Below are positions 5,085 through 63,994 of a stretch of 64,000 nucleotides of DNA, in pieces. The DNA comes from a virus (lineage: Duplodnaviria > Heunggongvirae > Uroviricota > Caudoviricetes): positions 66,050-130,049 of IMG/VR virus record IMGVR_UViG_3300028042_000002. One strand, given 5' to 3'. The number at the start of each line of letters is the position of its first letter. Position 1 is the first letter of the stretch. The position numbers were made by a program, and so were the translations under genes. The notes below the pieces were generated by a model. It searched no databases and was not told the origin of the DNA. It worked only from the letters and a program-made list of their open reading frames with translations.

Positions 5085-5270
5085 ATGAATATTCCAGTTA
5101 AATTGAAAAAAAGTATTAAAGGTCGCCCGCGTATAGAAATTGATATTGATTTAGCAATAAAATATCTAAATGGTGGGTACAATCTTTCGAGTGTGGCGGA
5201 GGAGATGGGAATTGCAAAATCTACATTATGTTTGAAAGTTAAACAATATAAAGAAATCCATAAATCATAA
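5085..5270 (+). CDS. small HTH DNA-binding protein (module copy A)
   Basis: 'KGRPRIEIDIDLAIKYLNGGYNLSSVAEEMGIAKSTL' is a resolvase/IS630/AlpA-like HTH. Paralogs at 18316-18528 and 63163-63402. Confidence 0.6.
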   Translation: MNIPVKLKKSIKGRPRIEIDIDLAIKYLNGGYNLSSVAEEMGIAKSTLCLKVKQYKEIHKS

Positions 5271-5338
5271 ACATAAAAAAGCTAGAAAGGTAATTACATT
5301 TTACCAATCTAGCCAACATGTTCACATTAAATATTACA

Positions 5339-5655
5339 AGGCATCTATCGTAAGAGTCCCTACTTTTGCGAAAGCTCATTTTGGGCATCCCAGCCCAAGT
5401 TCGCGGCAAAAGCTTAACGGGACTAATTATAATCTTCGATGCCCCGATTCGTCCTGCGTCCGTGACGTCTTCGTACAAGTATCGTTTCACTCGATGAACT
5501 ACGACACCACTACCTCAAATGACCTTTACGGCGATGAGAGCTGTTTTTCACCTTCTTCGTCAGTTCACTCTCGTTCTCAACTACGAATGCGCTAAACAGC
5601 ATCGCCTATCGGGGACTAATCGCCTTCGTTTCACTCTCCATGGCGATCAGCGCAT
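5339..5655. other. GC-rich (about 50% GC) noncoding island; candidate structured RNA or origin with TTCACTC and CGGGACTAAT direct repeats
   Basis: Abrupt composition shift. Long imperfect hairpin (ggcatc..gatgcc, agtccc..gggact, cttttgc..gcaaaag). TTCACTC occurs three times. Confidence 0.45.
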
Positions 5656-7003
5656 GAACAAAACTTCTATTAAACATCTTCTTTTAAGCGAATTAAATAA
5701 ATATAAAACTCGTTTATCGGATGAACCATCATTATACATCAATAATACTATTTATAACAAGTTAAAAGTTGTGAATATTAATAATTTTAAGAAGTATTAC
5801 CCAAAATTAACCCGAGTTGAAATCACAAATTTATTATATCTTATTATAAATCATAACTTTATCCATTTAAAGCAAGATGATAAACAAGGTTATAATATCA
5901 TAAAAATTTATGAAGTTTCAGGAATAAACGTGCAAGTTGGCAGAAAGATATTTACTTCTAAATTATTTACCGAACTTTTAAAATTATTACTTGACAATGA
6001 AATTATTATCAAAGTTAAAAATTATCAAAGTAAGTCACACTCCAACCAATATAAATTAAATGATAATATTATTAGCAAGATGACCACATGCCAAGGTAAA
6101 ATTATTAAATTATCGCCATTCGTCCTAAAATATAAAATTAAATTTTGCACATTAAAAATAGTTAAAACTGTTAAAGATGATATATATCCATACAAATATT
6201 TATTATTAAGCACACTAAAAACTTTAAATACTGTCCAATTTCCAACCATTGAAGAAGTTGAAAAACGATTAGATGAGGCTGTTAAAAATGGTGAAAGTAA
6301 CAAAGGTAAAATATATAAAAATTATAATGATTATAGAAATCTTGTTGACAAATCTAAATATACAAACATTCAAAACATTAAAAAAGTGTTTTTATATTTA
6401 ACAACTGGATTGATATTTTCAAGGAGTGAAGAGTTTGGCAGAATTTATACATCATTTAATATGATACCAACTATCACTCGCAATATGTGTAAATTAAATA
6501 ATAATGAATTAGTTGGATTAGATTTTAATGCACTCCATCTTAATATTGCACAATCATTAGCAGTTAAACATTATGACCATGATATTAAAGATTATAATGA
6601 AATTACTCATGATAATATTGCATCCTATATGAAAATATCACGTCAAGAGGTCAAAATAGACAATTTAAGCCTACTTAACCGAAATTTGGAAGATGGGTAC
6701 GACTATAATAATAAACGTTGGGAAAAAGGCTTAATAGGAACTCCTACAGTAAATTACTTTTTAGAGTGCATCCCAGTTTTATATAATTATATTGTACAGA
6801 AAGGCGATAAAGGTATTACAAAATTTCTATTTAATATTGAAACTAAATTGATGGATAAAATTGCTATGAAATTGTTATATAGTGGTATTAATTTTATGTA
6901 TATTTTTGATGAGATAATGGTAGAGTCGAAGTATAAAATTAATGTTAGAAAGTTGATGCTGATGGAAGCTAAAAGAATGTGGATATTGGCAGGAGTTGGA
7001 TAA
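5654..7003 (+). CDS. large conserved protein of the 3-copy module (possible primase/replication-initiator component); start reset to MNKTS
   Basis: About 60% identity to the 61826-63166 ORF. The N-terminal extension in the ORF track lies in the GC island and is not conserved in the paralog. Confidence 0.55.
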   Translation: MNKTSIKHLLLSELNKYKTRLSDEPSLYINNTIYNKLKVVNINNFKKYYPKLTRVEITNLLYLIINHNFIHLKQDDKQGYNIIKIYEVSGINVQVGRKIFTSKLFTELLKLLLDNEIIIKVKNYQSKSHSNQYKLNDNIISKMTTCQGKIIKLSPFVLKYKIKFCTLKIVKTVKDDIYPYKYLLLSTLKTLNTVQFPTIEEVEKRLDEAVKNGESNKGKIYKNYNDYRNLVDKSKYTNIQNIKKVFLYLTTGLIFSRSEEFGRIYTSFNMIPTITRNMCKLNNNELVGLDFNALHLNIAQSLAVKHYDHDIKDYNEITHDNIASYMKISRQEVKIDNLSLLNRNLEDGYDYNNKRWEKGLIGTPTVNYFLECIPVLYNYIVQKGDKGITKFLFNIETKLMDKIAMKLLYSGINFMYIFDEIMVESKYKINVRKLMLMEAKRMWILAGVG

Positions 7004-13622: not shown

Positions 13623-14516
13623 ATGGCTACACAAATCAAAGGTTTAATCGGTGGTACTCGTGCAACTAACTTTTTCAAAATTGACCCAGAATTAATTATT
13701 ATTCAAGAAGGGTTTAATCCTCGCGATAGTTCTAACATTGACCCACTTGAATTATATGAAAGTATTAAAGAAAATGGTGTAGTATCTCCACTTATCATCA
13801 AATTAGATAAAGACGGTAATGTACTTTTAGTTGACGGTGAACGTAGATTAACTACGGTTTTAAAATTGATTGAAGATGGTGTAGACATTCAATCTGTGCC
13901 ATGTTTAAAAATTAACAAATCTCAAGATAACGAAGTTGATTTGTTAATGATGGCAATGATTGCAAACGATAGCAAACAATTAACACCATTAGAATTTAGT
14001 GAGACCTTCGCTAGATTGTTAAAATATGGGTTAAAACCTGCTGAAATTGCTAAAAAAGTAGGTAAAAGTCGGGGATGGGTTGATAATATGATTATCTTAA
14101 ATAACCTTAATCCATCTTTGAAACAAGAATTAAGAAATGGTGTAATTACGTTAAATATTGCGTTGGATATTGTACGTGAAAATCAAGGTGATTATGAAGC
14201 CCAAAATGAAGATTTTAAAATCATTACTGAAAATGCTGAAATTATTACTGAAACTGTAATAAATGAAGATAATGAACCAGTTGAAAAAGTTGTTAAAACT
14301 AAATTATATTCAAAAGGGTCAATGAAGCCTGTTAAATTGGGTGTTGCTAAAGAAATTCTTAAGGCAGTTGCATTCAATGATGAAGAATTAGAAGATTTAG
14401 CCAATCTTAAACAACTTATTGATAAATATACAACCGATGATAAAAGTATTTCGAATGTTGAAATGAAAGCATTTGCACTTGGAATGATGGCGGCTAAAGG
14501 TAAATATATGGTTTAA
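13623..14516 (+). CDS. parB: ParB-like nuclease/partition domain protein
   Basis: N-terminal ParB box 'VDGERRLTTV', then an HTH 'KPAEIAKKVGKSRGWVDNMIIL'. 297 aa. Confidence 0.7.
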   Translation: MATQIKGLIGGTRATNFFKIDPELIIIQEGFNPRDSSNIDPLELYESIKENGVVSPLIIKLDKDGNVLLVDGERRLTTVLKLIEDGVDIQSVPCLKINKSQDNEVDLLMMAMIANDSKQLTPLEFSETFARLLKYGLKPAEIAKKVGKSRGWVDNMIILNNLNPSLKQELRNGVITLNIALDIVRENQGDYEAQNEDFKIITENAEIITETVINEDNEPVEKVVKTKLYSKGSMKPVKLGVAKEILKAVAFNDEELEDLANLKQLIDKYTTDDKSISNVEMKAFALGMMAAKGKYMV

Positions 14517-16773: not shown

Positions 16774-16961
16774 AATTATCAGAATTTAATAAAAGTAATG
16801 AAGATGCAAATCATCCATGTTATTTATGTAGAAATAGAATTATACATGATAATAAATATTGTAATTTTCATCCTAAATACGAACCTCATTGTATAATGTT
16901 GGTGTCACCATTTGAATTTTTAAATATGAATAAACTTTGTGATGCTATATCCTCTTCTTAA
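16770..16961 (+). CDS. small Cys/His-rich protein
   Basis: 'CYLC...CNFH' zinc-ribbon-like. Confidence 0.35.
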   Translation: MKLSEFNKSNEDANHPCYLCRNRIIHDNKYCNFHPKYEPHCIMLVSPFEFLNMNKLCDAISSS

Positions 16962-17400
16962 TACCTAATTCATATTCAGTCATTATCTTAAAATTTATGC
17001 CATGTTTAGTACAATATTCATTGGCATATTTCCATTTATCAGTATTCTTACGATAAGTCAATAATTCTTTTAATAATATTACTTTACGTTTACCTTTTTT
17101 TGGAACTGGTTCAATAGTTTCATGATATGGCTTAACTTCGATTAAATCTACTACAATTTCATCACTTTTATTACGATATTTTACTATAAAATCAGGGAAA
17201 TAACGTCTAACCTTTTTATCAACAGATGAATAATATCTTATTACTATGGTTTCACTACCCCACTCTAGGATATTTGGGTCTATGTCAAATCGTACCATCA
17301 ATTTCAATTCCCATGATGATCTATAGATTATATTTTTAACATTGCCTTTATATTTATCAGGATTTGAAGGTGTAAATCGACCTTTTTTAGCTTTATTCAT
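16945..17400 (-). CDS. PD-(D/E)xK-type nuclease-like protein (possible free-standing homing endonuclease)
   Basis: 'YFPDFIV...DLIEVKP' is a D...E.K motif. Lone minus-strand gene after plus-strand genes. Confidence 0.4.
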   Translation of the reverse strand: MNKAKKGRFTPSNPDKYKGNVKNIIYRSSWELKLMVRFDIDPNILEWGSETIVIRYYSSVDKKVRRYFPDFIVKYRNKSDEIVVDLIEVKPYHETIEPVPKKGKRKVILLKELLTYRKNTDKWKYANEYCTKHGINFKIMTEYELGIKKRI

Positions 17401-17628
17401 AATAATATTTATAATTATTTAATGGTTTAAATTTAATAATGATTTTAAAGTGGATAAGTTATTGAATACTATTTATTACTATGAAAAGATAAAACCTGCG
17501 TGTGATAATTCAAAGGCATTACTATATATTAATATAAATTTAGTACTGGATTAATATTGGGAATGGTTTTAAATTGGTTAATGTGTTAATAATATTTATT
17601 AAAATTATAATGTAATCCAGTTGAACAA

Positions 17629-17952
17629 TATTTATTACTATGGACGCTTCGCTTAGGTGTGCAAAATTCAAGGCATTATGATAAATTATTAGTTGATTAA
17701 TATTAAGCCATTTAAGCCAGTTGAATTATAATATCTACTACTTACTATTACTTTATGATTATGATTAAATTTAGCAATGGTTTTATAGTTGTTTGATATG
17801 GTAAAAGTTAGGTCATTATATTACATTGTAAGAATTGTATAATATTTATCAAAATTAATTAATATTAATAGAAGTAAGTCAAGTGGAAAATGTAATCAAT
17901 ATTATTCTTTCGAATTATCACACCAAAGCGAAGCGTCTAAAGTAATAAATTA
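17629..17952. repeat. about 320-bp noncoding element bounded by 45-bp inverted repeats (ATTTATTACT.TGGACGCTTCGCTTAGGTGTG.AAATTC); related direct copies at 17471-17521 and 4400-4445
   Basis: 17642-17661 'ggacgcttcgcttaggtgtg' pairs with 17921-17940 'cacaccaaagcgaagcgtc'. No ORF inside. Confidence 0.5.
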
Positions 17953-17969
17953 GTAATATGACCATTAAA

Positions 17970-18218
17970 GGGTCATTAATATTAAAATGGGTCATTGTCT
18001 CTAGCTGTTGATGTTATTAGTGTTTACTATACATAATGACCTAATGACCATATAAATTAATAAATATAATAATAATATAGTAGTAGTAAAACATATAACG
18101 TAAGTTGAATGGATATTATAGTCATTGGGTCATAATAACATATAAGTAGTTGATTTATATCATGTTTATATGATGACCCATTATTAATTTACTAACTATA
18201 TTAAATTGAAAGGGTCAC
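17970..18218. promoter_or_regulatory. cluster of at least 7 GGGTCA(T)/TGACC(C) repeats upstream of HTH gene (candidate operator/iteron array)
   Basis: Motif copies at 17970, 17989, 18035 (rc), 18044 (rc), 18127, 18175 (rc), 18212. Confidence 0.4.
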
Positions 18219-18315: not shown

Positions 18316-18528
18316 GTGATAAAAATGGCTTTAGATGTTAATAAATTAGTAAAAAATATAAAAGGTGCAGGAGCTTATAAAGATGTTGATATGGTGGAGA
18401 TTATGGAGTTAAAGAAACAAGGTTACACATATTCAAGTATGGCAGAGCAATTAGGTATCACAAAAGTTACACTTTCTAGGAAAGTTGCAGAATATAAAAA
18501 AGAATTATTAAAACGTAAAGGAAATTAA
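18316..18528 (+). CDS. small HTH DNA-binding protein (module copy B)
   Basis: 'QGYTYSSMAEQLGITKVTLSRKVAEYKKE' is paralogous to the 5085 and 63163 proteins. Confidence 0.6.
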   Translation: MIKMALDVNKLVKNIKGAGAYKDVDMVEIMELKKQGYTYSSMAEQLGITKVTLSRKVAEYKKELLKRKGN

Positions 18529-18531
18529 AAC

Positions 18532-19725
18532 ATGATAAACCAATCAAATATGATAGATAAATCAGCATTAGAAATTTTTGAAATATTTTTAGATGATAAT
18601 TCACATAAAGCAGGTTATGAAAAATTCATTCATCCTGATGGAAATTATATTCCAATATCTGAAATACACGCAGAATTTGACGCATGGTGTTCCAAACTTG
18701 GAGTGTCTGCTAAAGTTTATACCAATAGAAAATTTAAACATACAATGGTGTTATACTACGTGAAATGGCTAAAGGATTATAAATTATATTTAAGTGAAAA
18801 ATTATCAAAATGTCCAATCTCAAACAATCAAACAGAGTGGAAAAAACTCCAAAAATTGACAGAATTTACAGATAATGACATCATCATTTATAAGGCGTTA
18901 ATATGGAAAATTAAAACCCAACTTATAACAAATAAACAAATCAAGATACAATTTCCAATGCCAGTATTATTCAGTACTAAACAAGGCTTGGGTAAATCAT
19001 ATTTTAATAAATTATTATGTGAACCATTAGGCGAACTTTCAATTGAACGTGATATTTCAGTTTTAAACGATGAAAATAATTCTAAATTATTTAAAGATAT
19101 GTTACTTATCAACTTTGATGAAATGGCTAGTCAAACTAAGGAAAGCTTAACAAACCTTAAGAGTATTTTAACTAAAGATGATATCCAATTTAGAGAAATT
19201 TATACAGCTAATCAGATTACAGTAAAAAAGATGTTTTGTAGTGTAGGTTCATCTAATAAATCATTACATGAAATTTTAAATGATACGACAGGCTCGCGTA
19301 GATTATGGCAAGTTAGTTTAATTAAATCAATATATAAGACTATTCATAGTATTGATTTTCTTGAACTGTATCGAGAAGTTGATCACAATAAACCATGTGA
19401 ACTAATGAATGATGAATGTTATACTAAAATAATGGATATTCAACAATCAACCCAGCGTAAAAAGGATATTGTTGAATATTGGATTGAAGCTTGGAATTGT
19501 AATATTAATTATGGTGATATGATAGAAGTTGATATTCCATTAAATAATAGTACATATACTTCTATGTATTTATATAAACATTTTGAAAATTGGTGTATAA
19601 TTAACAATGAAAAAGTATTATCACATAATAAATTTGGTAGAAGTGTTAAAAATTATTTATCAACTGTTTTTATTAAGCACCGTACAAGTAAATTTAAAGG
19701 TTACAAATTTATCACACCACAATAA
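18532..19725 (+). CDS. D5_N-like + VirE-family P-loop NTPase (P4-alpha-type primase-helicase C-terminal module)
   Basis: 'LYAEFDAWC' D5_N-like region. Walker A 'KQGLGKSYF', Walker B 'INFDEMAS', VirE signature 'NDTTGSRRLWQV'. Confidence 0.65.
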   Translation: MINQSNMIDKSALEIFEIFLDDNSHKAGYEKFIHPDGNYIPISEIHAEFDAWCSKLGVSAKVYTNRKFKHTMVLYYVKWLKDYKLYLSEKLSKCPISNNQTEWKKLQKLTEFTDNDIIIYKALIWKIKTQLITNKQIKIQFPMPVLFSTKQGLGKSYFNKLLCEPLGELSIERDISVLNDENNSKLFKDMLLINFDEMASQTKESLTNLKSILTKDDIQFREIYTANQITVKKMFCSVGSSNKSLHEILNDTTGSRRLWQVSLIKSIYKTIHSIDFLELYREVDHNKPCELMNDECYTKIMDIQQSTQRKKDIVEYWIEAWNCNINYGDMIEVDIPLNNSTYTSMYLYKHFENWCIINNEKVLSHNKFGRSVKNYLSTVFIKHRTSKFKGYKFITPQ

Positions 19726-30605: not shown

Positions 30606-33600
30606 TTGAAACAGTACTTAAATATAACCCAAATTAAGAATAAAATTTATCATAAATATATTGATGAAAATGCTCAAAGGCAGGTAGAATTTACAGATAT
30701 TAAACCTGAATTATTCGTTAAAACCAATAGTGATTATGAAACAGATTATAAAAGTTTTAATGGTGGATATCTTGATAAAGTTGATTTTAATTCTATTAAA
30801 CATGCTCAATCATTTGTATATGAATATAAAGACCATATAGGATTTGATATTTACGGCAATCGTAACTACTGGGCGCAATTTATACATGAATACTACCCTG
30901 ATATTATTAATTATAATAAATCATTATTAAATGTAGTTTCATTAGATATTGAAAATTTGATAGGAGATGGTCGAACGTCACCAACAGAAAGTGCAATGTT
31001 AGCTAAAAATGAAATCACAGTAATTACACTTGGATATAATGGTAAATATTTCACTTTTACAACTAAACCATTTGAAAACAATGATAAAAATGTAATCCAT
31101 ACTCAAGCAAAATCGGAACAAGAATTATTATATAACTTTTTAATGAAATGGCGTGAAATTGACCCCGATATTATTACAGGGTGGTTTATAGACCAATATG
31201 ATATACCATATATTGTAAATAGAATTAGAAACTTGTTAGGTGATAAATATGTTAAATGGTTAAGTCCAAGCGGTAAACAATTTGTGGGGGATGATAGTGT
31301 AAAATACAATGATTATATTCATGATAATAAACATTATGATATATTAGGTATTACAACTTTAGACTACCTTGCAATGTACAAGAAATTTACATTCACTAAA
31401 CGTGAAAAATATTCATTAGATTTTATATCTCATATTGAATTGGGTAAAAATAAGCTAGATTATTCGGAGTATAGTAATTTAGATGATATGTATAATAATA
31501 ATCCACAAAAATACTTTGATTATAATATTATAGATGTAAAATTAATTGATGAGCTTGATGAAAAGTTAAACCTTATCGAATTATGCTTAAACCTTAGCTA
31601 TAAAAGTAAGATTAACTTTGATAAAGTATTTTCACAGGTTCAAATGTGGGATAGTTATATTTATCATGAATTAATGAAAGATAATATTATTATACCACCA
31701 AAGCAAGACCATAATAAATCAGAAAAATATGAAGGTGCGGCAGTAATTGAACCTAAAATTGGTTTGCATAATTGGGTAGTATCATACGACCTTGATGGAC
31801 TTTATCCACATTTAATGATGCAATATAATATTTCACCTGAAACAATCAGAAAAATATTGGATGGTGTAACAGTTGATAAATTGTTAAATAAATCTATAAA
31901 TGTTAATGAATTATTAGAAGGTGATGACGATTTAACATTATGTGCCAATGGTGTGACATTTAGTAAAACTGGTGGAATTATTCCTAAATTAATGAGGGAT
32001 ATTTATAAAGAACGGAAAGAAGTTAAGCAACAAATGTTGAAATATGAACAAATGTTAACAAATGATAAGAATAACAAAGAGTTACAGAATTTATATAGTA
32101 AATGTAAGGTTACTCAAATGGGATTAAAAGTATTTTTAAATTCATGTTATGGGATGCTAGGTAATCAATATTCAAGGTATTATAATATTAATATTGCCGA
32201 AGCTATCACTTTAAGTGGACAATTATCATTAATGTGGATTAAAAATGATATGAATACACAATTAAATAAAGAATTTAAAAATGTTGATGCTGATTATATT
32301 ATTGCGGGTGATAGTGTAGGTTATGAAAGTGAAGTTCATATTAGAAAACTTTTAAATAATGGTAATTATGATTATAAATCTATTAAAATTAATGAATTAT
32401 TTAATATGGTTGATATTGATAATAAATATTTAAATGATGATAAAGGTAAGCAAAGAATATTCAATATGCAAGGTTGGGAGACTTTAACTTACGATGAAAC
32501 AATTCATGAAAATTGCTATAAACCTATTAAATATATTTATCGTCATAAAGTAGATAAGCCAATTTGGAAAGTAAATATTAATAATTGCGAACATATTATT
32601 GTTACGGATGACCATAGTTTAATGGGATATGTCAATACTAAAAATAGATTAAATCATAAGTCTTCAATATTTAAGCGTGTTAAAGTTAAAGAATTAAACA
32701 AGACATCCTTAATTCAAAATAAACATTTGAAAATTCCATTATTAGAGTATGATAATATTGATAGTGATGAAGTGTTGAAATATCAATTCTTAGGTTACAT
32801 GTTGGCTGATGGTAATTATAATCATAAAATGTGTGAATTGAGTGTTGGAATTCAAGATGTTAATGAAATTGAAATTAAATTATTTAAACCATTATTAAAA
32901 GCTAACTTAATTACACGATATACAATCAGAGAAAATCGCCACGATGTTAGGATATATGGTGTAAATATGTTTAATTTTTGTGGTGATATTTGCAATAGAA
33001 CTGGAAAGTTAGAAACTTTGACAAATATTGAAAATTTAGAAGAATATAAAATTAAAGCTTTTTTAAGCGGGTATTTCACTGGAGATGGTCATGCTGGAGT
33101 AACTAACATAAAAGTTTCATCTATACATAAAAATATAATATTAAAAATTAAACGATTATTATTATTAATTAATATTTCTAGCACAATCTTTAAAGATAAC
33201 ACTGAAAATTCTTATAATGGCGTATTTAGTGGAACATTTAATTATGTATTAGTAATAAAAAGTGATTTTAATGAGGTTGCATTTATCTTAAACCGTAAAA
33301 ATGATTATAAAGATTATAATGATACCCCACGTAGAAGATATTTTAAAAAAAATGGATATAATTTTACTCTATCAACAATTAAAAATATAACACCTGTTAA
33401 TAATTACAATGAATTTGTTTATGATATTGAAGTTGAAGACACCCATACATTTTATGCTAATGATTTATTAGTTCATAATACCGACAGTATTTACACTACA
33501 TTTAACCCAATAGTTAAAAACTATGATGATAATTTATCTAACCATGAAATCACTATTAAATTAGATAAATTTTCAAAGTCTAAAATTCAACCAATGATTA

Positions 33601-34295
33601 ACCAATCTTACATAAATTTAGCAGAATATATGCACGCTAAAGAACAAAAAATGAATATGAGTAGAGAAGTTATTGCTAGTCGTGGAATTTGGAGAAAGAA
33701 GAAAAATTATGCTTTAGATGTTTATAATAGTGAAGGTGTAATTTATAATCCACCAAAATTAAAAATCATGGGGTTGGAAAGTGTAAAATCATCAACTCCT
33801 CAATTATGCAGAATTGCTATTACTAAAATTATTGAAATCATGTTACGTGAAGATGAACTAACTTTACAAGAATTTGTATCAAAATTTAAAATAGAATTTA
33901 ATAATGCTCCACTTGAAGATATTGCCAAACCAACAGGGGTTAATGATATCGTAAAATGGGATTATGATGATAAATTTAATAAATGGGGATTTACAACTAG
34001 AACACCTGCTCACGTTAAAGCTAGTATTACATACAATAGATTAATTGATGAATTAGATTTATACACTAAATATAAAACTATTAATAATGGTGATAAGATA
34101 AAATATTTATATTTATTAAAAAGTAATCCACTTTTCACAAATACAATAGGGTTTCCTGATGTTCTACCATCTGAATTTAAACTTAATGAATATATTGACT
34201 ATAATAATCAATTTTATGTTACATTTAAAAAGCCATTGGATAGTTTATGCAATATAATAAATTGGAAATCTGAAAAACTTAAAACATTTTTTTAA
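30606..34295 (+). CDS. gp43: family B DNA polymerase (T4 gp43-like) containing an intein
   Basis: Exo motifs ('LDIENL'), 'GWFIDQYDIPYIVNR', 'SLYPHLMMQYNISPETI'. Motif C is split: ..IIAGD|intein|TDSIYT. Confidence 0.9.
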   Translation: MKQYLNITQIKNKIYHKYIDENAQRQVEFTDIKPELFVKTNSDYETDYKSFNGGYLDKVDFNSIKHAQSFVYEYKDHIGFDIYGNRNYWAQFIHEYYPDIINYNKSLLNVVSLDIENLIGDGRTSPTESAMLAKNEITVITLGYNGKYFTFTTKPFENNDKNVIHTQAKSEQELLYNFLMKWREIDPDIITGWFIDQYDIPYIVNRIRNLLGDKYVKWLSPSGKQFVGDDSVKYNDYIHDNKHYDILGITTLDYLAMYKKFTFTKREKYSLDFISHIELGKNKLDYSEYSNLDDMYNNNPQKYFDYNIIDVKLIDELDEKLNLIELCLNLSYKSKINFDKVFSQVQMWDSYIYHELMKDNIIIPPKQDHNKSEKYEGAAVIEPKIGLHNWVVSYDLDGLYPHLMMQYNISPETIRKILDGVTVDKLLNKSINVNELLEGDDDLTLCANGVTFSKTGGIIPKLMRDIYKERKEVKQQMLKYEQMLTNDKNNKELQNLYSKCKVTQMGLKVFLNSCYGMLGNQYSRYYNINIAEAITLSGQLSLMWIKNDMNTQLNKEFKNVDADYIIAGDSVGYESEVHIRKLLNNGNYDYKSIKINELFNMVDIDNKYLNDDKGKQRIFNMQGWETLTYDETIHENCYKPIKYIYRHKVDKPIWKVNINNCEHIIVTDDHSLMGYVNTKNRLNHKSSIFKRVKVKELNKTSLIQNKHLKIPLLEYDNIDSDEVLKYQFLGYMLADGNYNHKMCELSVGIQDVNEIEIKLFKPLLKANLITRYTIRENRHDVRIYGVNMFNFCGDICNRTGKLETLTNIENLEEYKIKAFLSGYFTGDGHAGVTNIKVSSIHKNIILKIKRLLLLINISSTIFKDNTENSYNGVFSGTFNYVLVIKSDFNEVAFILNRKNDYKDYNDTPRRRYFKKNGYNFTLSTIKNITPVNNYNEFVYDIEVEDTHTFYANDLLVHNTDSIYTTFNPIVKNYDDNLSNHEITIKLDKFSKSKIQPMINQSYINLAEYMHAKEQKMNMSREVIASRGIWRKKKNYALDVYNSEGVIYNPPKLKIMGLESVKSSTPQLCRIAITKIIEIMLREDELTLQEFVSKFKIEFNNAPLEDIAKPTGVNDIVKWDYDDKFNKWGFTTRTPAHVKASITYNRLIDELDLYTKYKTINNGDKIKYLYLLKSNPLFTNTIGFPDVLPSEFKLNEYIDYNNQFYVTFKKPLDSLCNIINWKSEKLKTFF
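32313..33479 (+). mobile_element. intein (389 aa) with LAGLIDADG homing endonuclease, inserted in DNA polymerase motif C (DTDS)
   Basis: Starts with Ser after AGD. Block B 'IIVTDDHSLMGY'. LAGLIDADG motifs 'FLGYMLADGNY' and 'FLSGYFTGDGH'. Blocks F/G 'VYDIEVEDTHTFYANDLLVHN', followed by +1 Thr. Confidence 0.85.
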
Positions 34296-43701: not shown

Positions 43702-43970
43702 TTAATAAATACCCAAAATTTAAACTGTTGATGGAATTGTTTGATATTAAACCTAAAGTAACTAATGTAATAATTTGTAAATATTGTTACTCAAATGGTT
43801 ATAATTTTTATTTCAATTTAAATGAAATAAAACGTGATACATATTTCAACATATTTAAATATGATAATATTATAAATTCTCGACAGTTTGAGACTAAGAG
43901 TTTTATGTTAGACGAGATAAAAGCTTATCAAAATGTAGATTTAATTCTAATCCACGGTGACCCAAAATGA
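43698..43970 (+). CDS. glutaredoxin/thioredoxin-like (NrdC/NrdH-like) protein
   Basis: 'CKYC' redox-motif candidate. Lies between nrdB and nrdA. Confidence 0.4.
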   Translation: MINKYPKFKLLMELFDIKPKVTNVIICKYCYSNGYNFYFNLNEIKRDTYFNIFKYDNIINSRQFETKSFMLDEIKAYQNVDLILIHGDPK

Positions 43971-46279
43971 GTAAAAAATTAATCACTTTAGAAGATGTTA
44001 TTCAAAATTATAACACTAAAAACCTTAATATTATTAAACGTAAAGGTCATACAGAGCCATTTAATGTGACCAAATTATTAAAGGTTATAAATTGGGCTAC
44101 TCAAGATAATGAAAACTTTACTAAAGAATTATTATTAGACACTAAAATTAAATTATATAATGATATTCGTATTGTTGACTTATATAATGAATTAATTAAT
44201 ACTGCTAGTAATAAAATTTCATTAATGTACTCACAATGGGAATATATTTCAGCACGTTTGTTTTTATTAAAAATTTATAAAGACGTGTGGCAAATCGAAA
44301 CGAAAGATTATCCAAATTATTCAGATGTAATTAAAAAAGGTTTACGTCATCATATTTATGACCATAAAATTATTAATACATTTACAGATGATGAAATTGA
44401 CCAATTGGATATTGTTATTAAAGCTTCTCAATCTAACGACCTTTTATTCACATGGAAAAGTTTAAATACAATTTATGATAAATATTGTTTAAATTATACC
44501 AAGACTAAAAAGCTTGAATTACCACAACATGTGTATATGAGAGTGGCTATTGCATTACATTATAAATCTAATAATAAAATATCTAAAATTATTGAATGTT
44601 ATAATAATTTAGCCACTCATAAATTTACTGTATCAACTCCTATTGCATTAAATGGATTAACAATAAATTCAAACTATGCAAGTTGTGTACTATCTCAAAT
44701 GGATGATGATACACATAATATTTTAGATGTTAATAAAGATATGGGGATTTATTCAAAATATAAAGGTGGAACTGCGTGTGATATTACTAGATTAAGAAGT
44801 AAATTATCTTATATTAAAGGTAATCAAGGTTATTCAAGTGGTACAGTTCCATTTATTAAAATAATTGAAAGTACATTAAAAGCATTTAATCAAGGTGGAA
44901 AACGTACAGGAAGTTGTAATATATTTTTTCAGTGGTGGCATCATGATTTTAAAGATTTAATTGTGCTTAAAAGTAATACTGGTACTGATGATAATCGTGC
45001 AAGGTCATTAAAATATGCTGTAAAATTGAATAACTTATTAATTCATCGTGTAATTAGAGATGAAGATATTACATTATTTGACCCCAAAGATGTTCCAAAA
45101 TTATTCAATATTTATGGTGATGAATTTGATAAACAATATATTGAATATGAAAATAAAGTAGGCATTCGTAAATCTAAAATGAAAGCCAGTGATTTATGGT
45201 ATATGATGATGAAAGAACGTGCCGAAACGTCTAATATTTATCTTTTCCACGAAGAAAATGTTAATAATCATTCAATGCTAAAAAGGTATATTAATAGTTC
45301 TAATTTATGTATGGAAATTTTAGAACCCTCAAGAGCATCCAAACTTATTAATGAAACTTATCATACTGATGAAAATGGTAAGGTTACTATAAATAAATCT
45401 TATCAGGCTGGTGAAATTGCATTATGTAATTTATCATCCATCAATCTATTAGAATATTTTAAACTTTCTGAAAGTGGAAGAGCTAAATTAATCTTTAATA
45501 TTGTTGAAACACTTGATAATAGTATTGATTTATCATATTACCCTGTTAAAGAAGGTAAAATATCTAATTTAAAATATAGATACCTTGGAATAGGTGTTAA
45601 TAATTATACAAATTATCTTGCTACGTTAGGGATTATTATTGATAGTGAAGAAGCTTTAACAGAAACTCATAGAATATTTGATGAAATTTCATATAATATT
45701 ATCAATAGTTCAATGTTATTAGCTAAAAGTAAGGGTAAATTTGCAGGGTATAACGATACAAAATGGGGAGATGGTGTATTACCTGTTGATATTTGTAATA
45801 AACGTGCATTAGAATTGGGTGATTATAATCAAAGTTTATCAATGAGGTTAAAATGGGATAAATTACGTATAGATATTAAATATTATGGTGTGAGAAATGC
45901 TTTAATGTTGGCTATTATGCCCACTGCAACATCAGGAAAGTCAATTAATGCTACAGAAAGTATTGAACCTATTTCAAATTTATTATATAAAGAAAGTGGA
46001 ACTAAAAATATAACTAGCCTTGTTCCAAATTTTAGAAAGAATAATAAATATTATAAAAATGGTTTTGAATGTAATCAAGAAATGTTAGTTAAATTAGCCG
46101 CTATTAGACAATGTTACATAGACCAGTCTCAATCATTAAATTTATACTTTAAGCACCCCGACAGCCTATATGAGCTTAGTAGGATACATTTATTAGGCTT
46201 TGAATATGGTGTTAAAACTTATTATTATATGAAACAGCTTAAATCTAGTGATGAAGAAATATGTGAAAGTTGTTCTTAA
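43967..46279 (+). CDS. nrdA: ribonucleotide reductase class Ia alpha subunit
   Basis: 'ASCVLSQ', 'SNLCMEI', 'GEIALCNLSSINL', C-terminal CxxC. Aligns along its length with E. coli/T4 NrdA. Confidence 0.9.
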   Translation: MSKKLITLEDVIQNYNTKNLNIIKRKGHTEPFNVTKLLKVINWATQDNENFTKELLLDTKIKLYNDIRIVDLYNELINTASNKISLMYSQWEYISARLFLLKIYKDVWQIETKDYPNYSDVIKKGLRHHIYDHKIINTFTDDEIDQLDIVIKASQSNDLLFTWKSLNTIYDKYCLNYTKTKKLELPQHVYMRVAIALHYKSNNKISKIIECYNNLATHKFTVSTPIALNGLTINSNYASCVLSQMDDDTHNILDVNKDMGIYSKYKGGTACDITRLRSKLSYIKGNQGYSSGTVPFIKIIESTLKAFNQGGKRTGSCNIFFQWWHHDFKDLIVLKSNTGTDDNRARSLKYAVKLNNLLIHRVIRDEDITLFDPKDVPKLFNIYGDEFDKQYIEYENKVGIRKSKMKASDLWYMMMKERAETSNIYLFHEENVNNHSMLKRYINSSNLCMEILEPSRASKLINETYHTDENGKVTINKSYQAGEIALCNLSSINLLEYFKLSESGRAKLIFNIVETLDNSIDLSYYPVKEGKISNLKYRYLGIGVNNYTNYLATLGIIIDSEEALTETHRIFDEISYNIINSSMLLAKSKGKFAGYNDTKWGDGVLPVDICNKRALELGDYNQSLSMRLKWDKLRIDIKYYGVRNALMLAIMPTATSGKSINATESIEPISNLLYKESGTKNITSLVPNFRKNNKYYKNGFECNQEMLVKLAAIRQCYIDQSQSLNLYFKHPDSLYELSRIHLLGFEYGVKTYYYMKQLKSSDEEICESCS

Positions 46280-57353: not shown

Positions 57354-59582
57354 TTAAATATTTTCTGACAATACGCCAATTACTTCACTAAATTCAACAT
57401 TGCCACCAACTGCCACAAAATTTAATTGAATATAATTAATTGAATAAACTGGTTTGATGTAAATATCACAAATAAATTCTGAATTTTGGATAACTTGTGG
57501 AGTGTTATTACTTTCATCACAAACCACTTTAAAATCACTAATTCCACGTCTACCTTGAACAGTGCGTAAAAATGGTTCAACTTGTGATACAAAAGATTGG
57601 CGAGTAAATCTATCATTAAATTCAAATAATTTATATTTAGCTGACTTTGCAATACTCTTTTCTAAAGTAATGAATAATCGTCTAATATTCAACTTTTGGA
57701 ATGCTGATGGACGAGCTAATAAAGTTTTATCACCAAGTAAAATTACGCCTTCACCAACTTCACTAATAATTGGATTGATACCATTTTTATAAAGGTTATC
57801 ACGTTGTCCTTTATTTGGATTATATGCCAATTTTACAACGTTTTTAATTTGCCCACGCTCATAACCAGCGGGAGACCACCAAGTATCACGATTAAAATCA
57901 GTATAAGCACATTTTCCAGCGACATCAGCATTTAATGGTAACCAGCGATATTTATCATTATATTTATCATATTGATATTTCCAATTGCAATCCATAAAAG
58001 CGTAACTTGATGAAATATTCACATCTTGTCTAGTGTTAATTACATTTGCATTAGCATTAACATCATTAATACCAACAATATCACTATATTTAGGTGAATA
58101 AAACATGACACAATCTTTACGAACTGTTGCAATATTATCATTTACATATTTAACAATAGTTTTAAAAGTGTTAACGGTTGCACCTTCACCAGCATCACCT
58201 ACAATTAATAATGATACGTCAACTACTTCACTATTTACAAATAAATCCCATCCACGAGTTAATTCATCTTCACCAACTGTTGCACTATTAATACCACCTG
58301 ATAAAGTTTTATCAAAGGTTGCGGATAATGATTTAAAATTTTGACCACTGGCAATTGTATTCCAAGGGTCATCAAAATTAGCATCAACTACAATTACAGT
58401 ACTTGCTAATGCTTGAGTACCATTGGCAGGTGCATCAATAGTAATTACAGTTGTTGCAGTAATATAATTTTGACCACTTGAACCGACTGCAACACTTTCA
58501 ACACTTTTACTAATTGTGGATGTTGCTGTAGCATCGCCATTACCCGAACCAGTTGTATCAATATTAGCAGTTGAATATCCTGTGCCAGCATTTGTAACAG
58601 TAATAGTATCAATTACTCCACCAGTTACCGAACCTACAGCCGCACTTGCACCATTTCCATCACCAATAATTACAATTAAATCACCAAGGGTGTAACCTGT
58701 ACCACCATCTGTAACAATAATACTATCAATAATACCAGTGGATGATAATGTTGCTGTCGCTGATGCAAGAGTTCCATCACCAGTAATTACCACATTTGGT
58801 ACACTTGTATAACCATCACCACCATTATCAACAGTAATATTAGTAATTGAACCACCTACAGCATAATCACCACTTTCAGGGTCAGTTAAATACCATACAT
58901 AATCTGATTGATTATTAATTACAGTTCCATAAAAGTTAGGAGTACCGTCTAATTCTTTACCATCCTTAGCTTTTGATAAATATGCAAACCGTTCTAATAC
59001 TGTATCAGGAATACCCGTAAATAATCCTAATTTATCCACAATTACAACATGAATTTCATCATTAGAACCATTTACACTTTTAACATATTCTGAACTACTA
59101 GGCGCACCATCAAATAAGTTTTCATAACTTTTATAATTAGGATTAGTTCCCCATGTTGCACTATCAATTAAGATAATTTCTAATGAATTACCTAAATTAC
59201 TTGGATATTTTGAGGCAAATATAGCAGTATTGCCAGCCGATGTACCAATAATTTGACTATGTGAAGTTTCATTTTTAATTAGTAAACCAGTTCCATCTAC
59301 TGTAGCATTTTTAGCCACCGTATCATCAACTACCCTAACTACATTGATATTATTTGAATAATCTAAAAAGTTTGATACGCTGAACCAGTCTCTATAATTT
59401 ACATCATTAGGTTTACCAAGTTTAAACTCTAATTGACTTTTATTATTAAGGTTGATATATTCTTCTACAGCTCCCCATTCAAATTGACCTACAAACGCTG
59501 CACCAGTTGTGGCTACATTTTGAATAAATCCACTAAAATCAAATTCACGAGTTACTACACCTGCTGAAAGTTGAAATCCCAT
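57354..59582 (-). CDS. gp18: tail sheath protein (gp18-like) with Gly-rich repeat insertion
   Basis: N- and C-terminal sheath domains. Central 'NGGxGY' repeat insertion. 742 aa. Confidence 0.8.
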   Translation of the reverse strand: MGFQLSAGVVTREFDFSGFIQNVATTGAAFVGQFEWGAVEEYINLNNKSQLEFKLGKPNDVNYRDWFSVSNFLDYSNNINVVRVVDDTVAKNATVDGTGLLIKNETSHSQIIGTSAGNTAIFASKYPSNLGNSLEIILIDSATWGTNPNYKSYENLFDGAPSSSEYVKSVNGSNDEIHVVIVDKLGLFTGIPDTVLERFAYLSKAKDGKELDGTPNFYGTVINNQSDYVWYLTDPESGDYAVGGSITNITVDNGGDGYTSVPNVVITGDGTLASATATLSSTGIIDSIIVTDGGTGYTLGDLIVIIGDGNGASAAVGSVTGGVIDTITVTNAGTGYSTANIDTTGSGNGDATATSTISKSVESVAVGSSGQNYITATTVITIDAPANGTQALASTVIVVDANFDDPWNTIASGQNFKSLSATFDKTLSGGINSATVGEDELTRGWDLFVNSEVVDVSLLIVGDAGEGATVNTFKTIVKYVNDNIATVRKDCVMFYSPKYSDIVGINDVNANANVINTRQDVNISSSYAFMDCNWKYQYDKYNDKYRWLPLNADVAGKCAYTDFNRDTWWSPAGYERGQIKNVVKLAYNPNKGQRDNLYKNGINPIISEVGEGVILLGDKTLLARPSAFQKLNIRRLFITLEKSIAKSAKYKLFEFNDRFTRQSFVSQVEPFLRTVQGRRGISDFKVVCDESNNTPQVIQNSEFICDIYIKPVYSINYIQLNFVAVGGNVEFSEVIGVLSENI

Positions 59583-61256: not shown

Positions 61257-61802
61257 TTACATTTTAGATATAAATTTAAAGCATCTTAAACCGCCCTTTC
61301 GACATTTATTAAATTGACCACTTAAATAATTATTTAAATCTCGACTAAATTTAATATTACTAATAATTTTAATATTGCCAACTGTACACCCGTTTTCGAA
61401 ATGTTTATATAAGTTGGAGGATGAATAAATTTTATTAGGTTCTGCTTGAATAATTGGTTCACATTCACCATAATTTACATTATCAAGCCAATCTATATAC
61501 AATAATTCAACAATAGTCTTTTTACGTTGGGTTTCATAATTCTTTAATTCATCTTTATGTTCCTTTAACCATTCTTTATGATGTAAAACAAGTGTAAGTT
61601 TAAACTTAGTTTTATTATAATATTTACGGGGCACTTTAAGGTCAAAACACCACGCATCAAATTCTGCATAAAGTTCGGATTGAAAAATTTCATCATCATT
61701 TAAATCTATAAATTTTAAATATCCTGTTTTATATTCACGAAAATCCAAAAAAGTTTGAAATATTTCTAATGGTGTTTTATTTTCTATTGTTGTCATATTC
61801 AT
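61257..61802 (-). CDS. truncated D5_N-like fragment (paralog of N-terminus of 18532-19725; helicase part missing)
   Basis: 'LYAEFDAWCFDL' is shared with the paralog's 'IHAEFDAWCSKL'. Ends before the Walker A region. Confidence 0.5.
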   Translation of the reverse strand: MNMTTIENKTPLEIFQTFLDFREYKTGYLKFIDLNDDEIFQSELYAEFDAWCFDLKVPRKYYNKTKFKLTLVLHHKEWLKEHKDELKNYETQRKKTIVELLYIDWLDNVNYGECEPIIQAEPNKIYSSSNLYKHFENGCTVGNIKIISNIKFSRDLNNYLSGQFNKCRKGGLRCFKFISKM

Positions 61803-61825
61803 TAACCTATATTAATAATCATAAA

Positions 61826-63166
61826 TTAGCTTACATTGGATAAAATATTTAAATTTCTGCTACAGTTAATCATCGTATCATATAGGACTATTTTATTTTT
61901 AATTTCAACCATTAATTCATCAAATACATATAAAAAAGACATACCTGAATATAATAATACCTTGGCAATCTTATCCATTAATGAACTTTCATTATTAAAT
62001 AAAAATTTAGTAATACCTTTATTACCCATTTCCAATATATAATTATATAAAACTGGAATATGACGTTGAATATAATTCATAGTTGGAGTATTTAATGAGC
62101 CTTTCTCCCATCGTTCATTTTTATAATCATAACCATCATTTAAATTTCTATTAAGGATGCTAAGATTGTCTATTTTGACTGATTGGCGGGTAACATTCAT
62201 AGAGTTTGCAATATTATCATGAGTTATTTCATTATAATCATTTATATTATGGTTGTAGTGATTAACTGCCAAAGCTTGTGCGATATTAAGATGTAAACCA
62301 TTAAAATCTAATCCAACTAATTTATTATTGTTAAGTTTGCACATGTTACGGGCAATGGTTGGTAATAAATTAAATGATGTATAAATTCTGCCAAAGTCTT
62401 TACTAATTGAGAATATTAAATCATTGATTAAGTAGTTGAAAGTGTTTTTAGAGTTTTCAATATCAATATATTTACTTTTATCTTCCATTTTAATATATTG
62501 TTTATGGTTTAAATATACTCGACCCTTGTTAATTTCGCCATTCTCAACCGCTAATTCTAACCTTCTTTCAAATTCTTCAATAGTTGGAAATGTAATATCT
62601 CTGTAAGTATAAATACAACCTAATAATAAATGTAAATATTTGTACTCTGCGTTTGCAATAATATTATTTAATTTTAATATAGAGGATTTAGTTTTATATT
62701 TAGTTACTCGTGGTGATAATCTAATATCTTTATGTTTACAATTATAACGTTTACTTATGATATTATCATTTAATTTATATTTATTTGAACTTTTACCTAC
62801 TTTATACGATGCAGTCTTATAAATAATATTGTTATTGGTTAATAATTTTAATAATCGTGGAAATAATATCCTATTGAATATATTTTTACCATTTTCAAAA
62901 TTTATTCCAGCCTCTTCTGCAATAATAACATTTGTATCTATGCGTTCATCTCTTTTTACGCTAATAAAATTATTCTGAATTAATAGATACATCATATCGG
63001 TAACATCTTTCTTACTATATGAAGTGTTACCAATTTTAAATTCTTTAACTTTAATCTTAAATAATTCCCTATATATTGCATTATTAGCATATATGTAATT
63101 ATTTTTATCCAATGTCTTTTTATATTCAATTACAGCATTTTTTAATTTGTGTTTAATATCAATCAT
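61826..63166 (-). CDS. large conserved protein of the 3-copy module (paralog of 5654-7003)
   Basis: About 60% identity over about 330 aa ('GRIYTSFN..PTI.RNMCKLNNN.LVGLDFN.LHLNIAQ'). Confidence 0.6.
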   Translation of the reverse strand: MIDIKHKLKNAVIEYKKTLDKNNYIYANNAIYRELFKIKVKEFKIGNTSYSKKDVTDMMYLLIQNNFISVKRDERIDTNVIIAEEAGINFENGKNIFNRILFPRLLKLLTNNNIIYKTASYKVGKSSNKYKLNDNIISKRYNCKHKDIRLSPRVTKYKTKSSILKLNNIIANAEYKYLHLLLGCIYTYRDITFPTIEEFERRLELAVENGEINKGRVYLNHKQYIKMEDKSKYIDIENSKNTFNYLINDLIFSISKDFGRIYTSFNLLPTIARNMCKLNNNKLVGLDFNGLHLNIAQALAVNHYNHNINDYNEITHDNIANSMNVTRQSVKIDNLSILNRNLNDGYDYKNERWEKGSLNTPTMNYIQRHIPVLYNYILEMGNKGITKFLFNNESSLMDKIAKVLLYSGMSFLYVFDELMVEIKNKIVLYDTMINCSRNLNILSNVS

Positions 63167-63402
63167 TTTTTTAATTTTCCTAAATTTGGTTTCTTTGCTT
63201 TCATTGTTCTTTTTGGTTTTAAATTATGTTCCTTTCTATACGCATGAACCCTCTTATATAACGTGCATTTATTTACACCTAATGCATCGGCAATACTTTC
63301 ATGAGTATATCCTTCGTCCTTCAATTTCATAACCAATTCAATATCAATAACAACACCCCATGCAGTTTGTTTTAATTTACTTCTATCTAAATCCGAATTC
63401 AT
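63163..63402 (-). CDS. small HTH DNA-binding protein (module copy C)
   Basis: 'EGYTHESIADALGVNKCTLYKRVHAYRKE' is paralogous to the other two HTH proteins. Confidence 0.6.
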   Translation of the reverse strand: MNSDLDRSKLKQTAWGVVIDIELVMKLKDEGYTHESIADALGVNKCTLYKRVHAYRKEHNLKPKRTMKAKKPNLGKLKK

Positions 63403-63904
63403 AATATTACCTAATTTGTTTAATTGTTATGGTATTATAACAGTATTTATACATATTGAATTTAAAGTTGAATATAAAGTGTAAAAAATTATATAATAAT
63501 ATAAATATCTACCAATTTTGAAAAGTTTTAATAAATTAATTATTATATAAATCAATGACTTATAATTTTGTAATTCTGAACGTTTTATTATTACAAAAGT
63601 TGAAAATGTATAGTCTAGCTGTCATTCTAATAATGTTTACCCAAAATTGAAAATGACCCACATTATATATATGGGGCATATGTAAATATGCTTTATTAAT
63701 TTGTTTCATAAAGAAACATAATTATCAAATATTCTTTAAGAAAACATTGTACTACTATGATAAATATTATTGATATGATTATTGTCTTACTATACTGTTA
63801 AATATTGAATGGATTATCTTGATAGTACTAATCTTGATTATTATGATAATAAATTTAATTTAAATTTTGATTATATGTCAGAATATAGTGAATATATAGT
63901 GAGA

Positions 63905-63994
<90 letters not shown>

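Follow-up and report, generated by a model that had tools for sequence, protein, structure and literature searches.

The 64,000-nt stretch of phage DNA analysed here (the window; positions 66,050 to 130,049 of the IMG/VR virus record IMGVR_UViG_3300028042_000002, Caudoviricetes) contains near its end a small group of genes that raises a simple question: is an inverted duplicate of this kind a decaying remnant, or is it still in use? The group, module C (61257-63667, minus strand), comprises a noncoding motif, a gene for a small helix-turn-helix (HTH) protein and a gene for a large protein, and the same order is repeated at 4842-7003 on the plus strand (module A), about 55 kb away. In a preliminary description, made from the sequence alone, module C was regarded as an inverted and decayed paralog of module A that could mediate genome inversions. 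The results presented here agree with the paralogy, but they indicate that module C is intact and constrained, and its large protein is predicted to have the fold of a family-A DNA polymerase without an exonuclease domain.

Modules A and C compared

The large proteins of modules A and C, referred to below as the polymerases, are 55% identical over 444 amino acids (E 4e-159), and at the DNA level positions 5921-6924 and 62908-61905 share 70.7% identity over 1010 nt (E 3e-134). The HTH protein of module C (79 amino acids; 63163-63402, minus strand) matches the HTH_23 domain (E 1.4e-6) and the resolvase HTH domain HTH_7 (E 1e-3); it is 37% identical (E 8e-10) to the HTH protein of module A (61 amino acids; 5085-5270, plus strand; HTH_7, E 6e-4) and 45% identical to that of a further copy, module B. 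Upstream of the HTH genes, a noncoding element (motif 1) at 63613-63667 on the minus strand in module C can be aligned, read from 63667 to 63613, with 4842-4895 on the plus strand in module A, with 75% identity over 56 nt. The core of the module C copy, TAGAATGACAGCTAGAC, occupies 63613-63629. A 17-mer is identical at corresponding positions of the two modules, and the exact 16-mer AGAATGACAGCTAGAC is found in the window only at 4880 (plus) and 63613 (minus), when a second exact copy would be expected about 1e-5 times from a composition estimate. In both modules motif 1 precedes the HTH start by about 190-210 nt, and the positions of the two copies are therefore collinear.

Order, strand, distance and motif of the two modules were thus confirmed and go far beyond what could be expected by chance. 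Module C is an inverted paralog of module A with the same gene order, as had been described. The noncoding similarity between the two modules is limited to the 56-nt upstream motif; motif 1 and the polymerase gene are the only parts in which A and C can be seen to resemble each other as nucleotide sequences, and the HTH genes match as proteins only.

The polymerase gene of module C (446 amino acids; 61826-63166, minus strand), identified by its motifs and predicted fold, overlaps the stop of the HTH gene by its own start (ATGA). The module A polymerase (449 amino acids from the ATG at 5654; 5654-7003, plus strand) was delimited by paralogy and by residues that are invariant in the family. With a per-codon stop probability of 0.09 at this composition, open frames of 446 codons and of 181 codons (the length of the third gene of module C) would arise by chance with probabilities of 7e-19 and 4e-8, respectively. 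Between the two polymerase genes, the proportion of nonsynonymous differences (pN) is 0.29 and that of synonymous differences (pS) 0.63, giving a pN/pS of about 0.46 and a corrected dN/dS of about 0.27. In the third gene, which is related to a helicase of module B, pN is 0.30 and pS 0.56 for the N domain, and the corresponding values for the C domain are 0.37 and 0.49. The polymerase copies are old, with 45% amino-acid divergence and saturated dS, and both retain all 8 of the 8 residues invariant among 92 family members. Judged from these data, both large proteins are intact and under purifying selection, and module C does not look decayed, nor does the copy look like a pseudogene. What stood of the proposed decay is that the third gene goes back to a helicase that lost part of its sequence; the module itself is open and constrained and keeps the invariant residues.

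The suggested role in genome inversion fared less well. The inverted arms share 71% identity, and no perfect match between them exceeds 27 nt (the longest one is located inside the codons for GRIYTSFN), which makes inversion by recombination unlikely. A contig from the ENA is collinear with the window from 5352 to 63927 and 100% identical over the approximately 12 kb compared at each end; with such identity it is probably from the same sample and says little on inversion polymorphism. No evidence of inversion was found, and module C is a poor substrate for it.

The large protein and its family

By sequence, the 446-aa protein matches nothing in Pfam, PHROGs, NCBIfam, the PDB sequences or INPHARED (blastn, tblastn). 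In a word-indexed search of 5.8 billion proteins the sole matches were the protein itself, copy A and a protein with 30% identity on another phage contig, and a profile of 92 sequences run against the same index returned 6 proteins only. When 1.84 billion cluster representatives were searched exhaustively with a profile, at least 415 relatives were obtained at E <= 1e-3, mostly of 400-600 amino acids, 169 of them at E <= 1e-30. HNH, GIY-YIG or NUMOD modules, either fused or inserted, occur in a small number of family members. In the alignment of 92 sequences R273, D287, H292, H316, K331, N339, E393 and D416 are invariant, and the consensus motifs are GGRVxDSFxLMPSWIR, DYxCLHPNIA, VKxEHLSFFNK and YVYDAL, represented in the module C polymerase by GRIY at 259, D287-x4-H292, R327xxxK331-x7-N339 and FD416E. 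We take these to resemble the pre-motif-A 'GRxH..F' and the A, B and C motifs known from family-A polymerases, and the likeness was tested by structure.

With the 92-sequence alignment, AlphaFold2 gave a model with a pLDDT of 92.2 and a pTM of 0.90 (a model made with 3 sequences had a pLDDT of 38 and was discarded). In a Foldseek search against the PDB the top 50 matches were all family-A DNA polymerases, among them the apicoplast polymerase and those of Bst, Klenow, T7 and Taq, with a best E of 3.5e-5. The best fold matches in BFVD were 400-450-aa phage proteins, some of them named DNA polymerase; one named 'Putative DNA polymerase I' had TM values of 0.62/0.67. The predicted parts are an N-terminal region with a winged-helix-like part, thumb, palm and fingers, with no exonuclease domain. 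The model thus presents the 446-aa protein as an exonuclease-less polymerase of about 450 amino acids with the fold common to PolA and single-subunit RNA polymerases and with an unrelated N-terminal domain. Although the fold is that of PolA, none of the 92 members matches the Pfam DNA_pol_A profile. A different reading of the HTH and large proteins, as an IS3-like orfA/orfB pair, was rejected, neither a transposase fold nor a transposase domain being found.

At the fold level, the similarity to RNA polymerase is one that DNA polymerases have as well. In the window proteins 44 residues separate the Asp of motif A from the Lys of motif B, as compared with 47 in T7 DNA polymerase, 43 in gp030 of phage Ma-LMM01 and 94 in T7 RNA polymerase; the extended fingers of T7-like RNA polymerases, with a spacing of about 94, are not present. 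Together with the Foldseek ranking and the genes that neighbor relatives, this spacing leans towards DNA rather than RNA polymerases for the 446- and 449-aa proteins.

A group of polymerases with such a reduced architecture has been described as TV-Pol (Iyer, Abhiman and Aravind 2008; PMC2579912). TV-Pols have 400-600 residues and consist only of a thumb, an Arg-bearing hairpin, a palm with two Asp and fingers with RxxxK; they were predicted to be primase-polymerases and to represent a minimal, possibly ancestral form of the superfamily to which family-A DNA polymerases belong together with RNA polymerases of the T7-like type (PMC2579912). They were never found associated with nucleases (PMC2579912). 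In viruses they are linked to D5-like helicases, and in bacteria to resolvases, integrases, transposases and transposase-type HTH proteins, in mobile elements located in hot spots for restriction-modification (RM) systems (PMC2579912). They occur in Flavobacteriales, Polaribacter, Psychroflexus, Cytophaga, phage Ma-LMM01 and SCCmec, with duplicated copies in Brucella and one copy inside Ma-LMM01, and the CCPol of SCCmec is the sole biochemically studied enzyme among those placed in the group (PMC2579912). CCPol, together with its small partner MP, primes DNA de novo using dNTPs only (Bebel et al. 2020; PMC7581432), and pairs of polymerase and single-stranded DNA-binding protein were later extended to other Bacillota elements (Rice 2023; PMC10061031).

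The window polymerases show the features of this group in most respects. They are minimal family-A cores of 400-600 amino acids without an exonuclease, the two palm Asp (D287 and D416) are invariant in the 92 sequences, both window copies included, and an Arg is found on the hairpin before the palm: R273 is invariant and R260 nearly so, with strands predicted at 261-263 and 281-288. R273 or R260 may be equivalent to the template-contacting Arg. The RxxxK of the fingers reads RQSVK and RQEVK in the window copies; across the 92 sequences K331 is invariant and the R is not conserved. The neighborhood of a D5-like helicase, or of resolvases and RM genes, was also found. Moreover, the window polymerases share the grammar D-x4-H-x2-IA / VK-x7-N / D(G)AL with gp030 of Ma-LMM01 (HDGAL in gp030), a 506-aa protein (L107 22746-24266) still annotated as hypothetical. 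Its size and its location beside IS605-type transposases suggest that gp030 is probably the phage example meant in the TV-Pol paper. As no sequence profile ties the family to a named polymerase, fold, motif grammar and context are the basis on which the 446- and 449-aa proteins are regarded as probable TV-Pol members.

The context of more distant members was surveyed by scanning the GTDB species genomes with a 25-sequence family alignment. Of the 80 loci obtained, all but a few belong to Bacteroidota (Flavobacterium, Psychroflexus, Polaribacter, Lutibacter and Chitinophagaceae), and in 21 of the 80 a resolvase was encoded at most 4 genes away. Other neighbors were GIY-YIG/NUMOD1 endonucleases, DUF3871, AAA_24 and type I RM genes; in 13 of the 80 loci a GIY-YIG/NUMOD1 endonuclease gene lay directly downstream of the polymerase gene. 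One metagenomic relative (the P0066 locus) is situated between a resolvase/methylase and an RM cluster, and another adjoins genes for a clamp loader and a 5'-3' exonuclease. On small phage contigs, the polymerase gene usually opens the run of genes that follows a long intergenic region.

Module B, the helicase-derived gene and flanking features

Module B was found by tblastn of the module proteins against the window. Its HTH protein (70 amino acids; 18316-18528, plus strand), identified by tblastn and paralogy, is followed by a complete D5/VapE-type superfamily 3 helicase (397 amino acids; 18532-19725, plus strand), identified with Pfam and with PHROGs, in which it is labeled DNA helicase/primase. 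The helicase is composed of a Pox_D5-like N domain, a P-loop core (GLGKS) and a Pox_D5 C domain. When the whole protein was scanned, Pfam placed the VapE-like/DUF5906 P-loop core at 143-267 (E 8e-18) and Pox_D5 at 344-386 (E 2e-8); when the ends were scanned alone, Pox_D5 was matched in both the N-terminal 100 amino acids (E 8e-4) and the C-terminal 97 (E 1.2e-4). D5_N, the domain to which the N-termini of this helicase and of the 181-aa protein had been likened, was absent from the copy-B helicase at E <= 10 in Pfam, and Pox_D5 was matched instead.

The third gene of module C (61257-61802, minus strand) starts 23 nt downstream of the polymerase gene and encodes 181 amino acids. The protein has no Pfam or PHROG match of its own, a search of the 5.8 billion proteins returned itself only, and it was recognized by alignment to the copy-B helicase. 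Residues 1-83 align with residues 2-84 of that helicase (47%) and residues 91-179 with residues 307-395 (45%), so that both terminal domains are kept and exactly the ATPase core is lost, not, as had been thought, everything except the N-terminus. The missing core (residues 85-306 of the helicase, about 222 amino acids, including GLGKS) was removed in frame and is replaced by a 7-residue bridge; the P-loop ATPase core (Walker A/B) that defines D5/VapE superfamily 3 helicases is accordingly absent from the 181-aa protein. Since both ends of the helicase match Pox_D5, the two kept domains represent repeats of one DNA-binding domain type. The alignment indicates that the 181-aa gene was derived from a copy-B-type helicase through sequence loss. 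The opposite explanation for the difference between 181 and 397 amino acids, in which the copy-B helicase would have gained an intein or an additional domain, was rejected, the extra segment being the canonical VapE/DUF5906 ATPase core. In the helicase Cch2 of SCCmec, the terminal (C-terminal) domain binds origin iterons (PMC7581432). The make-up of the cassettes is therefore HTH then polymerase in A and C, and HTH then complete helicase in B, with C adding the helicase derivative.

Several noncoding elements are associated with the modules. A third copy of motif 1, inverted, lies upstream of module B at about 18000-18030 in a three-way alignment. One exact 17-mer match to motif 1 was found in IMG/VR, inside an unrelated coding region, and was judged to be due to chance. 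Upstream of module B there is also an iteron-like cluster of 8 GGTCAT/ATGACC sites (17811-18178), which encloses the inverted motif 1; GGTCAT occurs 34 times in the window, and 8 of these sites fall within 370 nt before the module. One further GGTCAT is located beside motif 1 of module C, inside a terminator-like hairpin (63657-63675, minus strand; a 7-bp stem, then a T-rich tail) directly upstream of the motif, which probably ends the preceding transcription unit. Motif 2 (ATTTATTAC...GTGTGATAATTCAAAG), detected in the repeat search (I9, I13), is found upstream of module A at 4396-4470 (plus) and upstream of module B at 17464-17535 (plus), 17624-17695 (plus) and 17880-17955 (minus), and exact copies of its 16-mer core lie at 4429 and 17500. 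The two motifs and the GGTCAT sites are candidate operator or origin sites, and we infer that they pair with proteins encoded by the modules. The HTH genes of B and C are preceded by ATACTGTTATAAT, an extended -10-like sequence, which suggests transcription by the host RNA polymerase.

Module A differs from module C in a 383-nt insert, recognized by its composition, between the HTH stop and the polymerase start (5271-5653). It reaches 49% GC, the most GC-rich stretch of the window, and the polymerase frame of module A is open from 5519 solely because this insert has no stop codons. The tighter junction between HTH and polymerase is thus that of copy C, and the interrupted copy is A. Both strands of the insert fold better than shuffled sequences (z -4.4 and -3.8). 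When it was examined as a known RNA, no Rfam match was obtained at the gathering threshold or at E <= 10 and no tRNA or tmRNA gene was found; searches of phages and IMG/VR gave no match. A structured RNA of an unknown type is one possible identity, a small mobile element another. The ENA assembly, probably from the same sample, breaks within it at 5352.

The window has 25% GC and encodes T4-type structural and replication genes, including the tail sheath (57354-59582), ribonucleotide reductase (43967-46279) and the family-B DNA polymerase PolB (30606-34295), whose gene is split by an intein with a LAGLIDADG homing-endonuclease domain; a domain scan also revealed T4-type terminase and RNA ligase genes. 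The window sequence is also present on a 130-kb JGI contig and a 58.6-kb ENA contig, the latter with Portal_T4, gp19, gp68 and an S77 protease. Nothing similar to module C was found in INPHARED at the DNA or protein level (blastn, tblastn). The carrier is a T4-like myovirus with a host that is probably a member of the Flavobacteriia.

Some further features of the window were noted. A free-standing TnsA-like endonuclease gene (16945-17400, minus strand; Tn7_TnsA-like_N, E 1e-20), about 900 nt upstream of module B, may be another selfish element beside the cassette. A ParB-like protein (ParB_N and HTH_ParB; 13623-14516) is encoded inside this lytic-type T4-like genome. Between 7300 and 13650 several families of intergenic repeats of 40-150 nt, direct and inverted, flank a run of small genes; boxes similar to TTGACA/TATAAT occur in these repeats (D1, D3-D7, I3-I7), which are reminiscent of the early-promoter cassettes that recur in T4-like phages. 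Finally, module C is preceded, about 500 nt upstream, by a near-perfect poly-T tract (63908-63993; on the plus strand 35 T, one A and 50 T). This tract, within which the ENA contig terminates, may be real or an assembly or library artefact.

Proposed role and comparison with known systems

On balance, and with some reserve, we favor the explanation that modules A, B and C form a three-copy paralogous set of replication-initiation cassettes, of which C is intact, and that these are replication-priming cassettes of the TV-Pol type, in which an exonuclease-less polymerase is targeted by the HTH protein and assisted by the helicase of module B. The mechanism is drawn by analogy with the CCPol-MP-Cch2 system of SCCmec and with the prediction made for TV-Pols. 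The HTH domains, the Pox_D5 domains or both would bind the shared upstream motifs and the GGTCAT repeats, and the module-B helicase would open the DNA. The exonuclease-less polymerase, probably in complex with the translationally coupled HTH protein, would then start and extend primers there, from which the PolB replisome of the phage would take over. The 181-aa two-domain protein might act as a non-motor origin binder or regulator. Primase or polymerase activity of the large proteins, directed to DNA rather than RNA synthesis, and a benefit to the phage are what we infer from this analogy.

Several results weigh against this explanation. The family consensus of motif C is YDA and not HDE, and the residues at motif A D+5 (the steric-gate position) and at K+8 are an invariant His and an invariant Asn, as compared with Glu and Tyr in family-A polymerases. 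No sequence profile, Pfam DNA_pol_A included, ties the family to any named polymerase. Neither the family hidden Markov models (HMMs) nor hhalign matched Ma-LMM01 gp030, the HMM search covering the first 50 kb of that phage, and hhalign of the family profile against the single sequences of T7 DNA polymerase and T7 RNA polymerase gave no signal. Module C is without a helicase motor of its own. The partner of CCPol, MP, is an OB-fold binder of single-stranded DNA encoded between polymerase and helicase, whereas the partner in the window is an HTH protein encoded upstream. In addition, by tblastn and phmmer no homologs of the window HTH proteins were found near the distant family members, and a relative of the D5/VapE-type helicase was found in only 1 of the 80 loci (L043).

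Other explanations have to be considered. The idea that copy C is a decaying, non-functional inverted duplicate, with homology for genome inversion as its main effect, could draw on the third gene without an ATPase core, on the weaker-looking constraint in the C-terminal half of the 181-aa protein (pN 0.37 vs pS 0.49) and on inverted arms that are 1 kb long. However, all of the reading frames are open despite a stop frequency of 9% per codon, the polymerase has a pN/pS of about 0.46 and a dN/dS of about 0.27 with every family-invariant residue kept, the HTH and polymerase genes are coupled by overlap, and the deletion in the helicase is in frame and took exactly the core between two kept domains. 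The arms, at 71% identity and with at most 27 nt of perfect match, are not suited to inversion either, and we regard decay as very improbable. Only slightly better placed, and still unlikely, is the view that the 446- and 449-aa proteins are minimal single-subunit RNA polymerases with the HTH proteins as promoter-specificity subunits, which would give the phage two transcription systems. Such a function might account for a motif C without the Glu of DNA polymerases, for the change from Glu to His at the steric gate, for the translational coupling of the HTH protein to the polymerase, and for the location of the gene, which on small phage contigs usually comes first behind a long intergenic region. 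The motif A to motif B spacing of 44 is, on the other hand, that of DNA polymerases and not the 94 of T7 RNA polymerase, DNA polymerases rank first in Foldseek, and the genes are linked to a D5-type helicase and replication genes. Motif 1 is found at the cassettes alone and before no other gene in the 64 kb, and CCPol, which has been placed in TV-Pol, uses dNTPs only (PMC7581432).

A greater, though still modest, chance is given to the cassettes being selfish TV-Pol-type mobile elements or their immobilized remnants, acquired by three invasions or by internal duplication. TV-Pols typically reside in elements with resolvases, integrases and transposases, as illustrated by Ma-LMM01 and the Brucella duplicates (PMC2579912), and the bacterial relatives of the window polymerases adjoin resolvases and RM islands. 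The HTH protein resembles the C-terminal HTH of resolvases and invertases, some family members have HNH, GIY-YIG or NUMOD inserts, and the phage is rich in selfish DNA, such as the PolB intein and the TnsA-like endonuclease near module B. Nevertheless, no catalytic domain of a recombinase or transposase was found in or directly beside A or C, the nearest candidate being the TnsA-like gene upstream of B, and no terminal repeats bound the cassettes. The copies are also old (45% amino-acid divergence, saturated dS), and the cassettes were kept open over that time. Mobility is compatible with later domestication, so this origin overlaps with the priming cassettes that we favor.

A more specific form of the priming explanation is put forward tentatively. 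The HTH protein and the polymerase could together constitute a sequence-specific primase-polymerase, in which an HTH rather than an OB fold directs the enzyme to the origin motifs, NTPs are perhaps accepted besides dNTPs, and the ATPase-less Pox_D5 protein is an origin adaptor or regulator. If true, a T4-like phage would have two inverted, protein-programmed origins independent of transcript R-loops, and the enzymes would provide a tractable model of the ancestral polymerase state proposed by Iyer et al. TV-Pol is a known kind of polymerase but little studied, CCPol of SCCmec being the one offshoot that has been characterized biochemically. The clade, which has at least 415 cluster representatives and is widespread in Bacteroidota and their phages, is invisible to the Pfam, NCBIfam and PHROG models searched, and its genes are consequently left 'hypothetical' by annotation relying on these libraries. 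The window represents a natural experiment: two diverged, intact copies occur in one phage, each with a paralogous HTH protein and a shared upstream motif, and a complete helicase partner is present alongside an ATPase-less one. Priming, substrate and targeting of such enzymes are therefore directly testable.

Among the known systems, classical family-A DNA polymerases and the split, polymerase-only genes of T7-like phages have the fold and the order of catalytic motifs in common with the window proteins, and some phages encode the polymerase domain alone (Czernecki et al. 2023; PMC10201439). The window proteins differ from these in having no Pfam DNA_pol_A match, no neighboring exonuclease gene and an unrelated N-terminal domain. 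Compared with single-subunit RNA polymerases of the T7-like and N4 types, their fingers are much shorter, there is no sequence match, and the context is one of replication.

The CCPol-MP-Cch2 system is similar in being an operon of an exonuclease-less A-family polymerase, a small accessory protein and a helicase of the D5/Primase_Cterm type. The terminal domain of its helicase binds iterons adjacent to the operon, and in the window a Pox_D5-domain protein and a GGTCAT cluster can be compared with these. However, CCPol can be identified as PolA from its sequence and has retained part of an exonuclease domain, and its hosts are Bacillota islands with serine recombinases, whereas the window carrier is a lytic-type T4-like phage with the functions distributed over three loci. 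No OB-fold partner is encoded between polymerase and helicase in module C, the next gene being that of the Pox_D5-domain protein, and for this reason the module was not filed as CCPol-type.

The closest correspondence is with TV-Pol as a whole, although for the N-terminal region of the window proteins an alpha/beta structure that includes a winged-helix-like part is predicted while TV-PolN is all-helical, and the partners in the window are a stand-alone HTH protein and a neighboring helicase relative without an ATPase. Shared with TV-Pols are the core-only size of 400-600 amino acids, the two Asp, the Arg before the palm, the K-bearing fingers helix and the lack of an exonuclease. The linkage to D5-like helicases, the context of resolvases, HTH proteins and RM genes, and the occurrence of multiple copies per genome are similar as well, and Psychroflexus and Polaribacter, both genera of Flavobacteriia, appear on the lists of carriers of TV-Pols and of the present family alike.

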